Virus record (IMG/VR): IMGVR_UViG_2896607866_000010 | Direction: 5' to 3' (one strand) | Length of the DNA stretch: 29,033 nt | Source of the DNA: a virus | Taxonomy: Duplodnaviria > Heunggongvirae > Uroviricota > Caudoviricetes | Shown: positions 9,654 through 28,455 of the stretch, piece by piece | How the letters are laid out: each line of letters starts with the position of its first letter | How positions within the stretch are numbered: position 1 is the first letter of the stretch | Notes under the pieces: generated by a model | What the model saw: the letters and a program-made list of their open reading frames with translations, nothing else | What the model was told of the DNA's origin: nothing | Database searches by the model: none | Translations under genes and position numbers: made by a program

Positions 9654-10559
9654 CTATATTTCCAGACATCTGTTATCACTTAACCCATTACAAGCCCGCT
9701 GCCGCAGATATTCCCGTGGCGAGCGATAACCCAGCGCACTATGCGGATGCCATTCGTTATAATGCTCGAACGCCTCTGCAAGGTTCTTTGCTGCCGTTAA
9801 CCCGTCTGGTTTGGGCATGATACTGATGTAGTCACGCTTTATCGTTTTCACGAAGCTCTCTGCTATTCCGTTACTCTCCGGACTCCGCACCGCCGTGTTC
9901 TTCGGTTCAAGTCCCAACATCCGGGCGAACTGGCGTGTTTCATTAGCCCGGTAGCATGAACCATTATCCGTCAGCCACTCCACTGGAGACGACGGAAGAT
10001 CGTTGCCGAAGCGGCGTTCCACCGCTCCCAGCATGACGTCCTGTACTGTTTCACTGTTGAAGCCGCCGGTAGTCACCGCCCAGTGCAGTGCCTCACGATC
10101 ACAGCAGTCCAGCGCGAACGTGACACGCAGTCTCTCTCCGTTATCACAGCAGAACTCGAACCCGTCAGAGCACCATCGCTGATTGCTTTCTTTCACGGCT
10201 ACTCTGCCTGTATGTGCCCGTTTCGATGGCGGTACAGCAGGTTTTCGCTCAAGCAACAGCGCATTCTGGCGCATGATCCGGTAAACACGTTTGGCATTGA
10301 TCGCAGGCATACCATCAAGTTCTGCCTGTCTGCGAAGCAGCGCCCATACCCGACGATAACCATACGTGGGCAGCTCTCCGATAACATGGTGTATACGGAG
10401 AAGCACATCCGTATCATCAGTGTGACGACTGCGGCGGCCATCCATCCAGTCATCGGTTCGTCTGAGAATGACGTGCAACTGCGCACGCGACACCCGGAGA
10501 CAACGGCTGACTAAGCTTACTCCCCATCCCCGGGCAATAAGGGCGCGTGCGCTATCCAC
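9654..10559 (-). CDS. insD: IS2 transposase OrfB (InsD)
   Basis: 301-aa ORF with IS3-family DDE motifs; A6G slippery site at 10559-10565 on the minus strand. Confidence 0.9.
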
Positions 10560-10882
10560 TTTTTTGCCCGTCCATATTCAACGGCTTCTTTGAGGAGTTC
10601 ATTTTCCATCGTTTTCTTGCCGAGCAGGCGCTGGAGTTCTTTAATCTGCTTCATGGCGGCAGCAAGTTCAGAGGCAGGAACAACCTGTTCTCCGGCGGCC
10701 ACAGCAGTAAGACTTCCTTCCTGGTATTGCTTACGCCAGAGAAATAACTGGCTGGCTGCTACACCATGTTGCCGGGCAACGAGGGAGACCGTCATCCCCG
10801 GTTCAAAGCTCTGCTGAACAATTGCGATCTTTTCCTGTGTGGTACGCCGTCTGCGTTTCTCCGGCCCTAAGACATCAATCAT
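10517..10882 (-). CDS. insC: IS2 transposase OrfA (InsC)
   Basis: 121-aa ORF starting [12 protein letters not shown] at ATG 10882. Confidence 0.85.
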
Positions 10883-10973
10883 CTGTTCTCCAATGACTAG
10901 TCTAAAAACTAGTATTAAGACTATCACTTAAATAAGTGATACTGGTTGTCTGGAGATTCAGGGGGCCAGTCTA

Positions 10974-12356: not shown

Positions 12357-12489
12357 GATTATGCTTCCTGTGATTTACTGTTATCGCTGCCTGTCACAAT
12401 AGGTTGCTTTAATTCTTTGAAGTGGCACACTGAATTTGGCCACCTGAACAGAGGTGATATGCTCACCTCAGAACAACACAGGTGCTCCA

Positions 12490-13658
<1,169 letters not shown>

Positions 13659-13805
13659 CCACTTCACTTCCTCATCACTCACTCCTGCGACGCTCCGTGG
13701 CAGGGCCCCCCACAGGAGTACCTTGTAAATGTAAGGTGTTTAAGCCTAAATTAAGTCGTATCACGGTTAAATAGCAAAGAAAAATTCACAGAAGGAAAGA
13801 CATTG

Positions 13806-14403: not shown

Positions 14404-14622
14404 CTACCCCCCAAGGCATTGGATCCTGATGTACTCCTGAAGCATTCTCAATGCTGTCTGGTCGCTGATGGGGCGCTTACCCAGAAGCAGACTTCCCAGC
14501 ACACCAATCGCAGCCCACTGTGATGGACTGACCTGATCCAACCACTGCAAAAACCAGTAGCCGGCACTGCCGGCGGAGGTGCCGTAGGCAATGCCTGTTG
14601 ATATTTTTTCCATCTGATACAT
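14404..14622 (-). CDS. class II holin of the 933W S-type, with a divergent C-terminus (possibly a remnant)
   Basis: N-terminal [10 protein letters not shown]...[25 protein letters not shown] matches the 933W-type holin as recalled; the C-terminal 20 or so residues do not; no endolysin or Rz genes follow. Confidence 0.5.
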
Positions 14623-15303
14623 ATCCCGCCCCCCCGACAGACCTGTGCTATCGGAAAGAAAAAAGGCCATCAGCAAAACTCTGATGGCCTGAATCACCTT
14701 TACCAATATTGTATGAAAAAACACGCACGACTAATTGACAATAATTTTCATTTCCATTAAAAAAGATCGCGTAGCATTCTTAATTCATGAGGAACTTTAC
14801 CCGCCAGCAATCTGAGTAGCGAAAGCTGTTCATCCCCAATGTTTTTGCTGGCGGGTCCTTTTTTCTACGGTCCTCCTCCCCTGAGGGGGGCATTTCATTA
14901 TTTTTCTAATCGTTACTGGTGAGAAGGCGGAAGAAAAAGCCAGTTCTTCGTCCCTAAATAACAGCATGATTCCAGTCCATGCAAAATCTGATTTCCAGCT
15001 CACACATACCGAGTACTGTACAAAAAACAGCCAACCAAGGCAGTTAAGAGTGTGTTCCCGGGGTTTGCTTAGAATATTTTGTAAGTTGTCCGAAGAGATA
15101 TTTACAACACCAGAATGATGCATTATCAGTCCCCTGCCAGAGGTTCACTACGTAACCTGACCGACAATGCACCATTCTGGTGCTGAAAAAAGAGCACTGG
15201 AACTGCAACAAAACAACATCACAGAACAGGAGATGGTAAGGAGTCAGACATTCCCACACAATATTGTGTCAGTGCAAATAACAACCTTCGTCTCAAATCT
15301 CGC

Positions 15304-15378
<75 letters not shown>

Positions 15379-15381
15379 ATA

Positions 15382-15456
<75 letters not shown>

Positions 15457-15458
15457 GC

Positions 15459-15535
15459 TGGCCCACCACCGAGGACTCGAACCTCGCACCGTCAACTTAG
15501 AAGGTTGATGCTCTATCCGGATGAGCTAGTGGTGG
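15459..15535 (-). tRNA. tRNA-Arg (anticodon UCU), phage argN/argU-like
   Basis: Cloverleaf with anticodon loop CUUCUAA, T-loop TTCGAGT, acceptor CCACCAC/GTGGTGG and encoded CCA; unusual C at position 1. Confidence 0.7.
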
Positions 15536-15536
15536 T

Positions 15537-15613
15537 TGGTGGCCCTTGCTGGACTTGAACCAGCGACCTGGCGATTATGAGTCGCTCGCTCTGACCAACT
15601 GAGCTAAAGGGCC
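15537..15613 (-). tRNA. tRNA with CAU anticodon, most similar to tRNA-Ile2 (ileX/ileZ-like); Met not excluded
   Basis: Cloverleaf with acceptor GGCCCTT/AAGGGCC, anticodon loop CUCAUAA, T-loop TTCAAGT and encoded CCA; resembles E. coli ileX as recalled. Confidence 0.75.
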
Positions 15614-15701
15614 GGAGGCAGAATAATAACCATATGTCATCACATCTGCAAACTCATCTGACCACCAGCACGTTTAACGTCCTGTGCCGTTTTTCAGGTA
15701 T

Positions 15702-15723
15702 AAAAAAACCCGCATAAAGCGGG
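15702..15723 (-). terminator. rho-independent terminator downstream of Q (tR'-like)
   Basis: Minus-strand hairpin CCCGC-TTTAT-GCGGG followed by seven T residues, about 80 nt after the Q stop and just before the tRNA array. Confidence 0.6.
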
Positions 15724-15802
15724 CTCTTTCAAATGTCCATGTCTGCTATTCGCCTCGCGGTACAGCTTTGCGAAGCGTACAAGAATTGAAGCAGTTTTTA
15801 CG

Positions 15803-16357
15803 TCAAAAAGCAATAACTTTTTTCTCTATACCAAAAGCCATAACCATTGGTTTGTACAAAATAAATTCTGCCACCTTTAGCCAATGCTCAATGCGTCTTT
15901 CACAGGTTCTTAAACTCCATTTCGGGTGTGCATCATTCAGCAGTTCAGCCATTTTGCGTTTGGTCATCCCCCGCCCCTCATAGCGTTGCCGAAGGACGCT
16001 AATCAATCCTGGATGCTCTGCCAGCACCTCACTTATGACCCGATCAATACATAACGCCTCTGCATCAGTACAATGCGCCAGCCAGCTCTTTTGCTTACCG
16101 TTAATCATATCCCGCAAAAAAGCCTCAAGTTCAGACTTGTTCAGACCTGCTTTTTTCATCCTCCGGAGCGCCTCGTTAATTGCCGTTTTTGTCAGCTTTT
16201 TAGAGGTCAACATCAGGTTAAACATATTCCCCGTCTTACCGCCACCAATATACGACCAGCGCCCCCACATACGTAGTTTTCCCTGAATCCAGACACTTTC
16301 CAGCGTGGTGAGACGAAGGTGTTCTCCGCTTTTTCCTGTATTCGTTGGGTAAATCAT
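15803..16357 (-). CDS. putative late-gene antiterminator Q
   Basis: 184-aa ORF with strong SD AAGGAGG and ATGA overlap with the upstream gene; located immediately before a tR'-like terminator, tRNA genes and the holin, the canonical Q position. Family assignment from recall, not verified. Confidence 0.5.
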   Translation of the reverse strand: MIYPTNTGKSGEHLRLTTLESVWIQGKLRMWGRWSYIGGGKTGNMFNLMLTSKKLTKTAINEALRRMKKAGLNKSELEAFLRDMINGKQKSWLAHCTDAEALCIDRVISEVLAEHPGLISVLRQRYEGRGMTKRKMAELLNDAHPKWSLRTCERRIEHWLKVAEFILYKPMVMAFGIEKKVIAF

Positions 16358-16644
16358 AAATATCCCTCCTTTCTCCAGATTTCTTGTGTGCGAAAAACAC
16401 CTTCTGCATGCATCAGGCGTAATTCTTCTTTGGTGTAATCGCTGGTTTTTACCCGCCCGTCGATTAAATCGTGGCACGAGCTACAGGCAATCGCTGCCTG
16501 CATATCGTGTGGCTTTATCGCTGTTCCGCACGTTCCCGCCAGTCGGTAATGCGCCAGCACAGACGTTTCCGGATCGTGATTGCAGTAGCCAGGAATTCTG
16601 ACGGTGCACATCTGCCCCCGCGCCGCTTTAAGTAAATCCACCAT
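16354..16644 (-). CDS. YbcO-like protein (DUF1364, putative nuclease) of the nin region
   Basis: 96-aa ORF with Cys pairs (CTVRIPGYC and CSSCHDLIDGR) resembling DLP12 YbcO as recalled. Confidence 0.5.
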   Translation of the reverse strand: MVDLLKAARGQMCTVRIPGYCNHDPETSVLAHYRLAGTCGTAIKPHDMQAAIACSSCHDLIDGRVKTSDYTKEELRLMHAEGVFRTQEIWRKEGYL

Positions 16645-17243
16645 TACGCAAACTCCAGCAGCTGCGCGGCCACATTTTCGACTTGTTCCGGAGAGGAAAA
16701 TTTACGGAACAGAATCCAGTTCCACAGCACATTCAGTACAGATTTATAAACCTGCTGAAACTCGGTTTCGTCCATATTCGCAAACGCGATAGATTTCGCC
16801 CGACACCCACGGCTACCGTCCGGATAAAAATGCTCGGTGTAAAATCCGGCCTGAATGGCTACCCACTCGCGGAAAGCCTCAAACGACTTTAGCAAAGCCG
16901 TATCACGGGTTCTGCGTGTCGCAACTGTATTCAGATATTGCTCTGCGGCTTCGCTCAGAGCTGGCGTATGTTCCCGGCCTACTGATTCACACAGGTAATC
17001 AACGAAACCGGACACCAGTTTTCGTTCGCGAGGCGTGATCGCCCCACCGACCGGAGTCCAGTAATCGAAACCCAGTTGCAGGAGTTTGAAAAAACGCTTG
17101 TGGAATGCGTAGTTACGCACACGCTTAAAGTCTGCGTGTATCCACTCACCTATTTTGATTTGATGCAGAAAATCGCAACTCTCCGGCGTCGCCGGGAGAA
17201 GTAATCCGGAAGAGGTTTGTTTGACCAGTTGTATATGTGCCAT
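16644..17243 (-). CDS. nin-region protein, YbcN/DUF1367-like (tentative)
   Basis: 199-aa ORF from ATG 17243 with SD GGAGAAAG; stop overlaps the downstream start (TAATG). Confidence 0.4.
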   Translation of the reverse strand: MAHIQLVKQTSSGLLLPATPESCDFLHQIKIGEWIHADFKRVRNYAFHKRFFKLLQLGFDYWTPVGGAITPRERKLVSGFVDYLCESVGREHTPALSEAAEQYLNTVATRRTRDTALLKSFEAFREWVAIQAGFYTEHFYPDGSRGCRAKSIAFANMDETEFQQVYKSVLNVLWNWILFRKFSSPEQVENVAAQLLEFA

Positions 17244-17281
17244 CGGCTTTCTCCGGTGGCACGGTGTTACACAGCAGGAGT

Positions 17282-17569
17282 TCAATCCTGCTCAAGATTG
17301 TAGATGAGTTTATTCTTCAGCAAAAGCAGAAAACCAGCCTTAAAACCAATCTCTTTCAAAACCCGTAATGATGTGACAAATTCGTCCTCACGCAAAATAA
17401 AACCGTCCGTCAGAAGTCCATTACAAAAATAAAATAACACAGCACCGCTCTTCCTTTGTTGAGATTGCAAACATCTAATGCGGCAATGGCTGACAATCGC
17501 TCCATTCTCAACGCGCACAGCATAGAGGCTATTTTCACTAAAAATTTCACGCAATTCTTCGATTTTCAT
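17282..17569 (-). CDS. hypothetical phage protein
   Basis: 95-aa ORF with SD GGAAGGA; stop adjacent to the next gene; no recognisable family. Confidence 0.35.
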   Translation of the reverse strand: MKIEELREIFSENSLYAVRVENGAIVSHCRIRCLQSQQRKSGAVLFYFCNGLLTDGFILREDEFVTSLRVLKEIGFKAGFLLLLKNKLIYNLEQD

Positions 17570-17698
17570 CTTCAGAATCCTTCCAGATAAATAGCTCTCC
17601 CCTGTTCGGGGTCCATCCCTCTTCTCCCTGCGCGCTACTTAAGTGAGTCGATTCTATCTGCGAAGGTGCGCGAATCAAATTCACCGGAAATAAACAAC

Positions 17699-17741
17699 AA
17701 AAAACCCGCCGAAACGCTGAGAGATCACAGCGATGGGCGGG
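17699..17741 (-). terminator. rho-independent terminator downstream of hok
   Basis: Minus-strand hairpin CCCGCC ... GGCGGG with an inner CGCTG/CAGCG stem, followed by six T residues. Confidence 0.5.
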
Positions 17742-17818
17742 TTAAGTGCGGGTGCGTTGAGGATGCCTGACACATCAGAGGTGGGCGGGGATGGGATCAG
17801 CTCCCCACCCGGTCACTC

Positions 17819-17974
17819 TTACTTCCTGGATTCGTAGTCTACGAAGACAGCGACCTCCGTCTGGCCGGTTCGGATTCGTACCTCACAGAGGTCTTTCCTC
17901 GTTACCAGTGCCGTCACTATGACGGTTAAACAGATGACGATCAGGGCGATTAACATCGCCTTTTGCTGCTTCAT
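17819..17974 (-). CDS. hok: Hok/Gef-family membrane toxin (type I toxin-antitoxin), HokD/RelF-like
   Basis: 51-aa product MKQQKAMLIALIVICLTVIVTALVTRKDLCEVRIRTGQTEVAVF... matching Hok/RelF as recalled; SD AAGGAG 9 nt upstream. Confidence 0.8.
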   Translation of the reverse strand: MKQQKAMLIALIVICLTVIVTALVTRKDLCEVRIRTGQTEVAVFVDYESRK

Positions 17975-18201
17975 AGCCTGCTTCTCCTTGCCTTTCGGCA
18001 TGTAAGAGGCTAACCTACATGTGCAAAGCATGAAATTGGCCTCAGATTAATGTTAAGCGTCTTGCCGGACGCGTAATGTTAACTGGGGCTTTTCTCTATC
18101 TGCCTTTTGGTGTTCATGCCTGAAGCAGATAGCCTCAAGCACCCGCAGTCATTCTACTTACCTCGCCAATATGAAATCAATCAGAAAGGTGCCCCATAAA
18201 A

Positions 18202-18888
18202 TCACTCCTTCTCTTCTTTACCGTAGTGGAGTTGACCAATTTTGATAAGAGGGCGTCCCTGAGATTTGCGGTGTAGATTGGTATCGCGCAGAGAATACAC
18301 ACAGCCACAATATTCCTGCTGATAGAATTTTTCGCGCTTGCTGATTTCAATCATACGGGACGAGCCGCCCTGCTTGCGCCAGTTATAATCCCAGTACACC
18401 ATGCCCGGATAATGCGCGACGGCTCGCCGCCCACAGTCGTTAACCTGCTGCATATTTTTCCAGCGTGAAATGCCCAGTGAACTGCTGATCACACTGAAAC
18501 CATTTTCAGCGGCGTACAGCGCTGTCCGCTCAAAACGCATGTCAAAACACATGGTGCAACGGATCCCTCGTTCGGGCTCCCATTCCATTCCTTTGGCTCG
18601 TTCAAACCAGTTGTCTGTGTCGTAATCAGCATCAATAAACGGCACGCCGTGTTGTTCAGCAAAGCGAATATTCTCATCCTTACGAATTAAATACTCTTTC
18701 TGAGGATGAATGTTCGGGTTGTAGAAAAAGATGGTGTAGTCGATTCCCGAGGCCTGAAGCGCCTCCATCACCTCACCGGAACATGGAGCACAGCAAGAGT
18801 GCAGTAGTAGTTTGTTTGCCCCGTTTGGGAGCTCCAATTTGGGCCGTTTGAAATCAGCAACTGTCATAAATATGTTTATTGGGGTCAT
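18202..18888 (-). CDS. QueH-like protein (DUF208, epoxyqueuosine reductase family), tentative
   Basis: 228-aa ORF with the characteristic Cys motifs: HSCCAPC near the N-terminus, RCTMC in the middle and YCGCVYS near the C-terminus. No obvious SD; alternative ATG at 18867. Confidence 0.55.
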
Positions 18889-19035
18889 AAAAATATCAAA
18901 GAGTGTAGCATTAGAACGGGGCTATCGGAAACAGATGTGTGACTGCTCCCCGCCCTTTCGGGCGGTCTCCTGATGATTTGAGGGTGCAGAAATCCCTCCG
19001 GTTAAGGATTAAATTTTTAACAGTGCTAAATTTAA

Positions 19036-19449
19036 TTATTCAGTTCTGGATTTTGTCGCCCTGCGTATCCGCGCTTTCGCGTTACGCTCAATCTGTATCA
19101 GCTTTTCTATATTTCTCCGCCTTTCCTGTTCCTCCTGGCGCAATAGCCTTACATCATCTGCCAGTCTGGTTTCTCTTTTTGCCACAGAGAGCATCCAGTC
19201 AAACGGCTCCACAACCGCACCGCAGATTTTACAGCGGACCTGACGCTCTTTTTCGTCAACCCGTACAGAGGCGTGATGGCAATATGGTCTTTCCGATGGC
19301 TCATAAAGAAAATTAACCTGATTACGAGGGTCATCCTCTTTTATCGGAAATAAAACGATATTGCTTAACTCATCTTCTGGTTTTATTTCCATGCTCCTCT
19401 CCTTTGATGCGAATGCCAGCGGTAATTGAAGCCTGATAGCTAATTTCAT
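19036..19449 (-). CDS. hypothetical protein with a putative zinc-ribbon (C-x-HH ... C-x2-C) and a basic coiled-coil C-terminus
   Basis: 137-aa ORF with SD AGGAGG; start abuts the upstream stop (TGAATG), suggesting one operon. Confidence 0.4.
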   Translation of the reverse strand: MKLAIRLQLPLAFASKERSMEIKPEDELSNIVLFPIKEDDPRNQVNFLYEPSERPYCHHASVRVDEKERQVRCKICGAVVEPFDWMLSVAKRETRLADDVRLLRQEEQERRRNIEKLIQIERNAKARIRRATKSRTE

Positions 19450-19872
19450 TCACAGTATCGCCTCCTGAAAATTACCCTGATAGAAAGCCAGTACACGCTG
19501 CATAGCTTCGCTCTTCCGGCACTCGCGACAGATTATATTCAGGCGCCTGTCGTAGCGGCGTATTTCTCCGTCAGGTAATGACCAGATAAGGTCCGGATCA
19601 ACAACAACCGGTTTCCTCACCTTTACTCTCGAGAGTTTTTTGCGGGCGCTTTGCCAGTCCTTGCGAGCCTGTTCAGACGGGAATAAGCCGTAGCCAGAAT
19701 TATATACATCACCACTTGCGACCAGTTCTATGCATAAGCGACCGACAGACGCACGACTGATACCTGTTTCATCGGACAACTGCCGAATCGTGACCCGACC
19801 GTCCTGATGCACGAGTTCCACAATTCGCGTCTTCAGTTCTTCCCGCTGTTCGGGAGTAAAAGGTTTCGCCAT
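19450..19872 (-). CDS. hypothetical winged-helix/HTH protein (possibly YdaW/DUF977-like)
   Basis: 140-aa ORF with strong SD CAGGAGG; N-terminal segment VTIRQLSDETGISRASVGRL has an HTH pattern; located directly after the DnaC-like gene. Confidence 0.45.
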   Translation of the reverse strand: MAKPFTPEQREELKTRIVELVHQDGRVTIRQLSDETGISRASVGRLCIELVASGDVYNSGYGLFPSEQARKDWQSARKKLSRVKVRKPVVVDPDLIWSLPDGEIRRYDRRLNIICRECRKSEAMQRVLAFYQGNFQEAIL

Positions 19873-19886
19873 AAATCCTCCTGAAA

Positions 19887-20633
19887 CTACTTAACAACCC
19901 TCGAATGGCTAACATTCGGACGCCAGCTCTCCCAGTTAAAATTCACCCAGCGCCCGCCGTTCATGACCATGCGATCCATCACCCGCTCGCCGAGCAATGT
20001 TTTCATCACCTCATAGTTCAGGTTTGTCAGCATCCCCACGCTGCGCATCGACGCTGTCCGGCGATCAACAATCTGGTGCAGCACCACCTGCTCGTTTTTC
20101 GTCTCGCGCTGAATGCCAATTTCATCAAGAACCAGCAGATCCACTTCGCACAGCTCCCGCAAAAATTTTTCGCCTGACTGCCCGTCGTCATAGCTGGCGT
20201 GCAGGGCGCTCATAACATCAGCCACGGTAACCACAATCACTGTCTGACCGTCTTTCAGCAGGCGATTCCCGATAGCTGCCGCTAAGTGATTCTTCCCGGT
20301 ACCAGGTTTTCCGCTGAACGCAAAATTTGTACACCCGGTCATCAGTTCATCGGCGATGGATTTCGCCTGGCTTAACGCGTATCGCTGGCCGTCGTTCTGC
20401 ACCTGGTAATTCGCAAACGAGCATTTACGGTGCAACGGCTGGATGCCTGAGCGATTCAGAATTTTTTCCACCCGCAACTGGCGATTCAGGCGGTTGATCT
20501 CCTCGCTACGTTTCTGGCCTTCAGCAAGTTGCCACTCGCGCCACTCCGCTACCGTTCTGAATGGGGCGGTTACATGTGGCGGGGTCAGTCGGCGGATGCG
20601 TTCCAAAACGCCGCCTGTCGCAATATTTTTCAT
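19887..20633 (-). CDS. DnaC-like replication protein / helicase loader (Rac YdaV-like AAA+ ATPase)
   Basis: 248-aa ORF with Walker A (GKPGTGKNHLAAA) and Walker B (LLVLDEIG) motifs. Confidence 0.75.
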   Translation of the reverse strand: MKNIATGGVLERIRRLTPPHVTAPFRTVAEWREWQLAEGQKRSEEINRLNRQLRVEKILNRSGIQPLHRKCSFANYQVQNDGQRYALSQAKSIADELMTGCTNFAFSGKPGTGKNHLAAAIGNRLLKDGQTVIVVTVADVMSALHASYDDGQSGEKFLRELCEVDLLVLDEIGIQRETKNEQVVLHQIVDRRTASMRSVGMLTNLNYEVMKTLLGERVMDRMVMNGGRWVNFNWESWRPNVSHSRVVK

Positions 20634-20639
20634 GGTCCG

Positions 20640-20960
20640 TTACCCCCTGAAGCCTGGCGGGATCGCACTGTCCGGCAACGAGACGGTGTTAACCTGTCGG
20701 AGCAACGTCTCAGGCCGAACACCTTTCGGCGCGAACAGGCCCTGGTATTCATTGGCGATGCTGTGTCGAATCACCTGCTCAGGTGTAAAACCCTGCTGAC
20801 GGAATTTTTCCAGTTCCCGTATCGCCCCGTTAGCGCCCTGCTCCGTTCGAATCGGTTTTCGCAATGCCTGTCTGAACCGGACCCACTCATGCCAGAGTGT
20901 TTCCGGCAACCAATCGGGCAGCTCAATAGCCTCCGGCTCGAATTTTTTAGACGCTCGTTT
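20640..20960 (-). pseudogene. YdaU-like replication protein, C-terminal fragment (gene split by IS911 copy 2)
   Basis: Open frame from the IS911 left junction to the TAA at 20640; in frame with the N-terminal fragment when the IS plus 3 bp are removed. Confidence 0.55.
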
Positions 20961-21032
20961 TGAAGTGGCACACTGAATTTGGCCACCTGAACAGAGGTGA
21001 TATGCTCACCTCAGAACAACACAGGTGCTCCA

Positions 21033-22201
<1,169 letters not shown>

Positions 22202-22287
22202 CCACTTCATTTTTGGCGAGGGGGATTTAGGGGGAGATCAGTATTTAGATCTTCCTCTTCCTCTGGTAACGCTTTTTGATCCGTTTG

Positions 22288-24662: not shown

Positions 24663-24673
24663 TGGATTTGCCC

Positions 24674-25579
24674 CTATATTTCCAGACATCTGTTATCACT
24701 TAACCCATTACAAGCCCGCTGCCGCAGATATTCCCGTGGCGAGCGATAACCCAGCGCACTATGCGGATGCCATTCGTTATAATACTCGAACGCCTCTGCA
24801 AGGTTCTTTGCTGCCGTTAACCCGTCTGGTTTGGGCATGATACTGATGTAGTCACGCTTTATCGTTTTCACGAAGCTCTCTGCTATTCCGTTACTCTCCG
24901 GACTCCGCACCGCCGTGTTCTTCGGTTCAAGTCCCAACATCCGGGCGAACTGGCGTGTTTCATTAGCCCGGTAGCATGAACCATTATCCGTCAGCCACTC
25001 CACTGGAGACGACGGAAGATCGTTGCCGAAGCGGCGTTCCACCGCTCCCAGCATGACGTCCTGTACTGTTTCACTGTTGAAGCCGCCGGTAGTCACCGCC
25101 CAGTGCAGTGCCTCACGATCACAGCAGTCCAGCGCGAACGTGACACGCAGTCTCTCTCCGTTATCACAGCAGAACTCGAACCCGTCAGAGCACCATCGCT
25201 GATTGCTTTCTTTCACGGCCACTCTGCCTGTATGTGCCCGTTTCGATGGCGGTACAGCAGGTTTTCGCTCAAGCAACAGCGCATTCTGGCGCATGATCCG
25301 GTAAACACGTTTGGCATTGATCGCAGGCATACCATCAAGTTCTGCCTGTCTGCGAAGCAGCGCCCATACCCGACGATAACCATACGTGGGCAGCTCTCCG
25401 ATAACATGGTGTATACGGAGAAGCACATCCGTATCATCAGTGTGACGACTGCGGCGGCCATCCATCCAGTCATCGGTTCGTCTGAGAATGACGTGCAACT
25501 GCGCACGCGACACCCGGAGACAACGGCTGACTAAGCTTACTCCCCATCCCCGGGCAATAAGGGCGCGTGCGCTATCCAC
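24674..25579 (-). CDS. insD: IS2 transposase OrfB (InsD), copy 2
   Basis: 301-aa ORF, one amino-acid difference from copy 1 (H to Y near the C-terminus). Confidence 0.9.
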
Positions 25580-25902
25580 TTTTTTGCCCGTCCATATTCA
25601 ACGGCTTCTTTGAGGAGTTCATTTTCCATCGTTTTCTTGCCGAGCAGGCGCTGGAGTTCTTTAATCTGCTTCATGGCGGCAGCAAGTTCAGAGGCAGGAA
25701 CAACCTGTTCTCCGGCGGCCACAGCAGTAAGACTTCCTTCCTGGTATTGCTTACGCCAGAGAAATAACTGGCTGGCTGCTACACCATGTTGCCGGGCAAC
25801 GAGGGAGACCGTCATCCCCGGTTCAAAGCTCTGCTGAACAATTGCGATCTTTTCCTGTGTGGTACGCCGTCTGCGTTTCTCCGGCCCTAAGACATCAATC
25901 AT
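25537..25902 (-). CDS. insC: IS2 transposase OrfA (InsC), copy 2
   Basis: Identical product to the copy 1 InsC. Confidence 0.85.
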
Positions 25903-25993
25903 CTGTTCTCCAATGACTAGTCTAAAAACTAGTATTAAGACTATCACTTAAATAAGTGATACTGGTTGTCTGGAGATTCAGAGGGCCAGTCTA

Positions 25994-27596: not shown

Positions 27597-27702
27597 TTAA
27601 CTGACTATTCGAAACTGAATTTATGCCAGCAATGGCAGGGATTCGCTCAACCTTAATTAAGGAGAAAAACATGAACACCAATTATGAGGTAATGACTCCA
27701 AC

Positions 27703-28206
27703 TTACTGATAGTGTTTTATGTTCAGATAATGCCCGATGACCTTGTCATGCAGCTCCACCGATTTTGAGAACGACAGTGACTTCCGTACCAGCCTTGCCA
27801 GATGTTGTCTCAGATTCAGATTATGTCGCTCAATGCGCTGAGTGTAACGCTTGCTGATAACGTGCAGCTTTCCCTTCAGGCGTGATTCATACAGCGGCCA
27901 GCCATCCGTCATCCATACCACGACCTCAAAGGCCGACAGCAGGCTCAGAAGACGCTCCAGTGTGGCCAGAGTGCGTTCACCGAAGACGTGCGCCACAACC
28001 GTCCTCCGTATCCTGTCATACGCGTAAAACAGCCAGCGCTGACGTGATTTAGCACCGACGTAGCCCCAATGTTCGTCCATTTCAGCGCAGACAATCACAT
28101 CACTGCCCGGTTGTATGCGCGAGGTTACCGACTGCGGCCTGAGTTTTTTAAGTGACGTAAAACCGTGTTGAGGCCAACGCCCATAATGCGTGCACTGGCG
28201 CGACAT
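27703..28206 (-). CDS. insB: IS1 InsB (transposase C-terminal part)
   Basis: 167-aa ORF matching IS1 InsB as recalled. Confidence 0.9.
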
Positions 28207-28400
28207 CCGACGCCATTCATGGCCATATCAATGATTTTCTGGTGCGTACCGGGCTGAGAGGCGGTGTAAGTGAACTGTAGTTGCCATGTTTTACGGCAAT
28301 GAGAGCAGAGATAGCGCTGATGTCCGGCAGTGCTTTTGCCGTTACGCACCACGCCTTCAGTAGCGGAGCAGGAAGGACATCTGATGGAAATGGAAGCCAC
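28125..28400 (-). CDS. insA: IS1 InsA
   Basis: 91-aa zinc-finger protein (CPSC...CSHC); GTG start. Confidence 0.85.
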
Positions 28401-28455
28401 GCAAGCACCTTAAAATCACCATCATACACTAAATCAGTAAGTTGGCAGCATTACC

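Follow-up and report, generated by a model that had tools for sequence, protein, structure and literature searches.

A queH gene of apparent chromosomal origin in lambdoid prophages of Escherichia coli and its likely value as a cobalamin-independent back-up for queuosine synthesis

The queH gene and its product

The 29,033 nt stretch of viral DNA held as IMG/VR record IMGVR_UViG_2896607866_000010, the whole of which is here called the window, contains an uninterrupted open reading frame (ORF) of 228 aa on its minus strand, at 18202-18888. It lies within a lambdoid prophage, at the junction between the replication module, which ends in a DUF977 gene, and the region containing hok, nin and the phage gene Q. 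On the evidence of its sequence and modelled fold, the identity of the predicted protein as a full-length QueH is well supported, and the gene is a housekeeping queH captured from a bacterial chromosome. The Pfam profile PF02677 (QueH) matches it at 220.6 bits (E = 1.9e-65), relative to a cutoff of 23.5 bits, with positions 1-174 of the 175 in the profile falling on residues 27-201. The QueH of Thermotoga maritima, the structure of which has been solved, is matched by sequence at E = 5e-22, with 31-33% identity.

Three cysteine motifs are evident in the translation, at aa 27-40, aa 108-117 and aa 192-200, the last of which reads EYCGCVYSL. Together they provide the complete conserved cysteine set of the family, in the arrangements CCxxC, CxxC and CxC (C32, C33, C36, C111, C114, C194 and C196), and each of these cysteines is the majority residue at its position across 86 diverse representatives of the QueH family. 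This set would supply the ligands of the [4Fe-4S] cluster and of the adjacent iron site, the assignment of individual residues reportedly being that of Li et al. 2021. The sole notable difference from the crystallised enzyme at a ligand position is Cys36, which corresponds to Asp13 in T. maritima. This was considered as a possible defect and rejected: the column holds cysteine in 70 of the 86 representatives and aspartate in one, hence the prophage protein has the residue typical of the family. Structures of C9S and D13N mutants are present among the QueH entries of the PDB.

An AlphaFold2 model of moderate confidence (predicted local distance difference test (pLDDT) score 76.4; predicted template modelling (pTM) score 0.78), in which the loop at 109-113 bearing the CxxC motif has a pLDDT below 50, was compared with the PDB using Foldseek. 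The five best matches were all T. maritima QueH entries (7lc5, 7lc7, 9d86, 9dco and 9deu; E = 1.5e-11 to 1.4e-10), with target-normalised TM scores of 0.80-0.85; TtuA-type PP-loop enzymes formed the next fold class, at E = 6e-5. A preliminary description of this DNA had picked out the motifs HSCCAPC, RCTMC and YCGCVYS, all three of which are seen in the translation, and had proposed a QueH/DUF208 homologue on that basis; the Pfam profile, the match to the solved enzyme, the predicted fold and the ligand positions agree with that assignment.

Translation probably begins at the second ATG of the ORF, at 18867, giving a protein of 221 aa. The RefSeq protein begins at this same codon (221 aa), which is kept in all 86 related queH loci, and the equivalent residue is the protein start in chromosomal QueH homologues. 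The first ATG, at 18888, is changed to ATT or TGA in two of these 86 loci, and the seven residues between the two codons are more variable than the remainder of QueH. Neither end of the protein was retained as a candidate phage-specific extension: the seven N-terminal residues were rejected as the first ATG is probably unused, and the basic C-terminal tail was rejected as chromosomal homologues also have it.

The prophage slot and its neighbours

The prophage in the window is 99.4-99.9% identical to one in E. coli FDAARGOS_944, a complete lambdoid element integrated beside the ybhA and mod genes. In that copy the repressor and cro genes and ydaT are followed by an O-like replication gene and ydaV (DnaC-like), then by DUF977, a small gene and queH; after queH come hokD, DUF1367, a YbcO-like gene, DUF1133/Q-like, a tRNA array, the lysis genes, and the terminase and structural genes. 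The same slot is occupied by queH in four further backgrounds. These are the phage HannyBb, an isolated and presumably viable Escherichia phage (PP925841.1, 33011-33697); a prophage of O157:H7; a Qin-like prophage of E. coli B, where queH is intact in strain B-DidR (NZ_CP115968.1; 7022-7687 of the retrieved stretch) and the gene order is dicB/dicC, DUF977, queH, hokD, rem, Q; and a Rac-like prophage. At the position of the E. coli B queH, the Qin prophage of K-12 carries different cargo.

Neighbouring genes were counted at 80 IMG/VR queH loci. In 75 of them the gene directly upstream, on the queH strand, is DUF977, at a median gap of 199 nt; in 65, hok lies directly downstream, again on that strand. 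Homologues of queH thus occupy a fixed slot in lambdoid prophages, after DUF977 and usually before hok/sok. Homology between the five prophage backgrounds runs from about 85 nt before the queH start codon to the stop codon, from which it follows that queH acts as a discrete cassette, and it persists in several prophage backbones with varied downstream cargo. The features of the locus in the window are:

18202..18867, minus strand: queH coding sequence (CDS) of 221 aa, if read from the likely start; 228 aa are encoded by the maximal ORF, which extends to 18888
18868..18952, minus strand: block of about 85 nt upstream of queH that travels with it in different prophages, as defined by the homology of the five backgrounds
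18950..18965, no strand assigned: GC-rich perfect inverted repeat CCGCCCTTTCGGGCGG, in the gap that separates queH from the small gene upstream
19036..19449, minus strand: small gene with a weak zinc-ribbon match (Pfam Zn_Ribbon_TF, 21.1 bits, below the cutoff)
19450..19872, minus strand: DUF977 gene, encoding a winged-helix protein, with which the replication module ends (Pfam DUF977, 116.5 bits)
17819..18180, minus strand: hok/sok type I toxin-antitoxin locus, immediately downstream of queH
15304..15613, minus strand, the same as queH: tRNA array of Gly-UCC, Thr-UGU, Arg-UCU and CAU (Met/Ile2), as called by ARAGORN

The block upstream of queH includes TGCTACACT, at 18910-18902 on the minus strand, an extended -10-like motif that is invariant upstream of the gene in all 86 related loci and can be regarded as a putative queH promoter; TGCTACAC is likewise found in all 86. 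On the transcribed strand the inverted repeat CCGCCCTTTCGGGCGG lacks a following U-tract, and the scan for intrinsic terminators flanking queH called neither it nor any other site on the coding strand upstream of the gene; the repeat is restricted to those variants of the upstream region that resemble the one in the window. An E-value scan of 14500-20500 against Rfam found only sok and the four tRNAs; ahead of queH it showed neither a riboswitch nor any other RNA element. The small gene is a variable neighbour, present at only 12 of the 80 IMG/VR loci.

Three statements of the preliminary description about this context are upheld. The location in a lambdoid prophage is borne out by the FDAARGOS_944 copy and by the related prophage loci; the four tRNA genes do lie downstream of queH, at 15304-15613; and hok is indeed adjacent, its CDS occupying 17819-17974, with a HOK_GEF match of 79.9 bits at 17819-18031 and a match of 117 bits to Rfam sok (RF01794) over the sok/mok region at 17969-18144. 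A promoter-like TTGATT-18-TAGAAT sequence is found at 18180-18151 (minus strand), just upstream of the hok/sok region, and a site with the same TTGATT and TAGAAT hexamers occurs at 17678-17651 (minus strand), just downstream of hok; the total of promoter-like sites in the scan is no higher than expected by chance.

In the O157:H7 (Z1768) prophage, the hok position is taken by genes for a Dcm-type cytosine methyltransferase and an NgoMIV-family endonuclease (7688-9882 of the retrieved stretch). This restriction-modification (R-M) pair is preceded by about 150 nt that still match the hok/sok leader of the window, the comparison having been made with window 17950-18201, and the arrangement suggests that one cargo was exchanged for another while a portion of the hok regulatory region stayed in place.

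The presence of such conflict-type cargo in the neighbouring slot, hok/sok here and the R-M pair in O157:H7, could be taken to indicate that queH serves in counter-defence or nucleic-acid modification, either by altering tRNA against anticodon nucleases or by contributing to 7-deazaguanine in phage DNA. Phages are known to protect their DNA through 7-deazaguanine pathways (PMC6884629), and queG frameshifts have been reported in most phage-resistant Vibrio isolates, in a study that did not demonstrate causality. However, the notion of a counter to tRNA-targeting defences, raised when the locus was first described, is unsupported: PADLOC-DB contains no match for QueH, for the 137-aa and 95-aa neighbours or for hok, and the DUF977 protein has two sub-threshold hits only (E = 0.002-0.007). 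Nor are there DpdA/TGT or preQ0-synthesis genes among the 51 annotated features of the intact FDAARGOS_944 prophage, and QueA, QueG and QueH were all absent from the viruses that Hutinet et al. analysed in their survey of phage deazaguanine genes (PMC6884629). As the protein is also 80-92% identical to housekeeping QueH, without phage-specific changes, we regard these functions as highly improbable.

The tRNA array might be thought to provide the substrate of the enzyme, modification of host or phage tRNA having been proposed at first. However, none of the four tRNAs, of which RefSeq labels the CAU member tRNA-Ile, has the GUN anticodon of a queuosine acceptor; no tRNA is present within 6 kb at 22 of 60 related viral queH loci; and none of the arrays at such loci includes Asp, Asn, His or Tyr tRNAs. 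A functional link between queH and the array was rejected on these grounds. The make-up of the array varies among related prophages (Arg-UCG/Arg-UCU/CAU; Gly/Lys/CAU/Thr; Gly/Thr; or none). The codons ATA, AGA/AGG, ACA and GGA, which these tRNAs read, show a 2-6 fold enrichment in the prophage genes relative to host genes, be they flanking genes or those of K-12, hence the array is explained by codon supply, independently of queH.

Codon usage bears equally on a role for QueH in the lytic cycle of the phage, whereby expression from the early operon would complete the queuosine modification of host tRNA so that NAU/NAC-rich phage mRNAs are translated well. The gene is on the early-right strand between the replication genes and Q, it is carried by the isolated phage HannyBb, and queuosine status is reported to tune the translation of NAU codons (PMC10570037). 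However, late and early prophage genes alike have an NAU fraction of 0.54, compared with 0.53-0.65 in host genes, which leaves the premise that phage genes are NAU-rich and need queuosine unsupported. Furthermore, queH is intact in prophages that are defective, such as the one in the window and the Qin-like element of E. coli B, and we reason that tRNA turnover within one lytic cycle is limited. A lytic role is therefore considered unlikely.

The defects of the window prophage are evident from comparison with the FDAARGOS_944 copy. It contains two copies of a 1331-bp insertion sequence (IS), at 9643-10973 and 24663-25993, and two of a 1251-bp IS3-family element, which we take to be IS911-like, at 12416-13666 and 20959-22209, one of which interrupts the O-like replication gene. 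The lysis cassette has a deletion of about 970 bp at 14470/14480, the approximately 770 bp at 27688-28455 stand in for around 4.7 kb of the recE-xis region, and 1-3874 matches nothing in the reference prophage. Judging by the number of IS copies, the host may be Shigella-like.

Origin, distribution and selection

The nearest relatives of the prophage gene outside Escherichia, all named QueH, are found in Scandinavium (92% identity), Kluyvera (91%) and Enterobacter (89-90%), followed by those of Erwinia, Providencia, Proteus, Photorhabdus, Pantoea and Serratia, at about 80-86%. In Erwinia, queH is chromosomal and placed between purL and glrK; in Providencia, it is likewise chromosomal, adjoining tmcA near purC. 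The neighbourhoods of the Photorhabdus gene and of another homologue, 90% identical, are also non-phage, and prophage marker genes are lacking at 79 of 80 species-representative queH loci, E. albertii being the only species to share them. Given identities of 80-92% to genes in non-phage neighbourhoods, the prophage queH is a captured housekeeping gene of the Enterobacterales type, as opposed to a divergent viral paralogue. Synonymous sites are saturated between the prophage gene and its chromosomal homologues, and either the capture was not very recent or the donor is unsampled. Matches of 78-86% identity were also seen under the implausible titles Bacillus subtilis SK7B5, Pseudomonas lundensis I31 and a Candidatus Avacidaminococcus metagenome-assembled genome, for which contaminated or mis-binned sequence, or else a recent transfer, is the likely cause.

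The prophage and chromosomal proteins have the basic C-terminal tail in common, along with essentially all of the conserved residues, and alignments of 15 sequences reveal no clade-specific substitutions. A neo-functionalised enzyme, which would have kept the QueH fold and metal sites and turned to another substrate such as an epoxide, a free nucleoside or a base, is hard to credit in the face of such shared near-invariant residues and the very high identity to chromosomal Enterobacterales QueH, and nothing specific speaks in its favour.

Amongst 5,426 complete E. coli genomes, queH is present in 995 (approximately 18%), including E. coli B, almost always as one chromosomal copy with 95-99% identity, and a further 189 IMG/VR contigs carry it. 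QueG, by comparison, is encoded by a core chromosomal gene adjoining nnr/tsaE, which was found at a coverage of at least 80% in all 5,426 genomes. Every E. coli carrier of queH consequently has both genes, and the prophage copy is redundant. The preliminary description was hence right that E. coli normally relies on QueG; its view that a QueH in a lambdoid prophage is unexpected has lost some of its force, as RefSeq names QueH in around 18% of complete E. coli genomes.

Pairwise ratios of non-synonymous to synonymous substitution (dN/dS) among the five prophage alleles are 0.04-0.10, at synonymous divergences (dS) of 0.15-0.46. The ORF is intact at all 86 related loci, and 985 of the 995 E. 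coli copies are near full length. By these measures the prophage queH is under strong purifying selection and is maintained as a protein. This bears directly on the suggestion that queH arrived through imprecise recombination and, as a neutral passenger with no useful function, owes its spread to hok and a successful prophage backbone. Its redundancy with the universal queG, its restriction to about 18% of E. coli genomes and its lack of a Shine-Dalgarno sequence would all fit such a history, but the signal of selection, across alleles diverged to a dS of 0.46, largely refutes it, and both the intact reading frames and the persistence of queH in different prophage backbones, with different downstream cargo, point the same way. 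We consider it very unlikely that the gene is merely carried along.

Proposed role and relation to known systems

The reading we favour, with a probability of roughly 0.7, is that the prophage encodes a working QueH of captured chromosomal origin, the likely value of which is as a cobalamin-independent back-up for the conversion of epoxyqueuosine (oQ) to queuosine (Q). We infer its enzymatic activity, its promoter, the benefit of its independence from vitamin B12 (cobalamin) and the timing of its expression as follows. The product would be an iron-sulfur, cobalamin-independent epoxyqueuosine reductase, predicted to convert oQ to Q at position 34 of the host tRNA-Asp, tRNA-Asn, tRNA-His and tRNA-Tyr. 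A lambdoid phage would have acquired, as cargo (a 'moron'), an ordinary chromosomal queH of an Enterobacterales bacterium plus some 85 nt from upstream of it; the gene would later have reached Rac-like, Qin-like and O157-type prophages in E. coli, in E. albertii and in the IS-riddled host of the window. Induction could bring transcription through the early-right operon, and in the lysogen the putative extended -10-like promoter of the gene itself might also be active. The enzyme would be redundant with QueG while B12 is available, and would keep the maturation of Q-tRNA running when cobalamin is scarce.

E. coli is not known to synthesise cobalamin de novo, and in the 1980s it was reportedly found to accumulate oQ in the absence of B12; QueH itself is said to have been described by Zallot et al. 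in 2017 as a cobalamin-independent epoxyqueuosine reductase. E. coli makes oQ and Q de novo (PMC5372724). The dependence of E. coli QueG on cobamides (PMC11841063), the description of QueH as a cobamide-independent alternative (PMC6461909) and the proposal that Staphylococcus aureus, which has both QueG and QueH, uses them according to cofactor availability (PMC13443448) together make a cobalamin-independent back-up the value that we think most likely.

A number of observations weigh against this proposal. No NCBIfam model matches the prophage protein at E <= 0.01, though RefSeq names it QueH; a scan with the sigma-70 consensus called no promoter on the coding strand upstream of queH; and, as was pointed out when the locus was first described, there is no Shine-Dalgarno sequence before either ATG. 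Deletion of queG left growth unchanged in the E. coli strain tested (PMC11841063). How oQ- and Q-tRNA differ in their physiological effects is poorly defined, and the decay of the window prophage is very recent, hence the intact queH found there is no independent evidence of selection.

If the benefit does lie in independence from B12, then a prophage would alter the epitranscriptome of its host in a manner set by nutrient supply, and strains would differ in a way relevant to comparisons of tRNA modification, K-12 having queG only and B-lineage or O157:H7 strains having both genes; when grown without B12, laboratory B strains may not have the oQ/Q status of K-12. A more far-reaching version, which we hold tentatively and think rather doubtful, is that queH is a lysogenic-conversion gene, freeing the final oQ-to-Q step from its reliance on cobalamin in E. 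coli, Shigella and E. albertii, none of which is known to make B12 de novo and all of which must compete for it in the gut. Were this so, lysogens that are short of B12, or can no longer take it up, would carry Q and not oQ, with a possible effect on the translation of NAU-rich biofilm or virulence genes, and common laboratory B strains would differ from K-12 in tRNA modification in B12-free media.

The identity of the gene is already known: it is annotated as a standard member of a family that has been characterised, and RefSeq gives the product name 'epoxyqueuosine reductase QueH' to this protein in about a thousand complete genomes of E. coli. In phage annotation, PHROGs places the prophage protein in phrog_3217, of 'unknown function', with a profile that starts at residue 41 and omits the CCAPC motif, which suggests truncated gene calls, and the HannyBb gene is annotated as encoding a 'hypothetical protein'. 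We found no literature report of a prophage QueH in E. coli, in a search that did not extend to the QueH discovery paper, which possibly mentions one. Hence, whilst the identity of the gene is ordinary, its context is under-reported, this being a tRNA-modification enzyme of the queuosine pathway as phage cargo.

In its full-length domain, cysteine positions and predicted fold, the prophage protein is the same as QueH elsewhere (DUF208/PF02677/IPR003828; T. maritima structures 7LC5, 7LC7 and 9DEU). It differs in setting, QueH otherwise being encoded at a chromosomal housekeeping locus and here on a lambdoid prophage, where its activity is a prediction. Of organisms with two such enzymes, A. baylyi ADP1 reportedly has both QueG and QueH, again according to Zallot et al. 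in 2017. QueG (YjeS), which depends on both cobalamin and a [4Fe-4S] cluster, is predicted to carry out the same reaction in the same cell (oQ34 to Q34), but is core chromosomal, non-homologous to QueH and in need of cobalamin (PMC11841063, PMC13443448). The situation in S. aureus is alike, with two non-homologous enzymes that have different cofactors and serve one redundant step (PMC13443448). However, the pairs in S. aureus and A. baylyi are both chromosomal, whereas the second enzyme of E. coli is prophage-borne and present in about 18% of strains.

Two types of mobile or phage-associated system also offer parallels. Dpd-type 7-deazaguanine clusters, in which DpdA is found with FolE, QueD, QueE and QueC, likewise borrow enzymes of the queuosine pathway; these are the early steps, combined with a DNA transglycosylase, whereas the prophage described here has QueH only, with no DpdA annotated. 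The other parallel is with the morons and nin-region cargo of lambdoid phages, such as hok/sok, R-M pairs and the tRNA genes before the lysis cassette, which queH resembles as a discrete insert at a module junction. It is moron-like in having a short conserved upstream block and variable neighbours and in being shared by unrelated prophage backbones. The cargo of the queH cassette, however, is a housekeeping tRNA-modification enzyme and not a toxin, defence or virulence gene.

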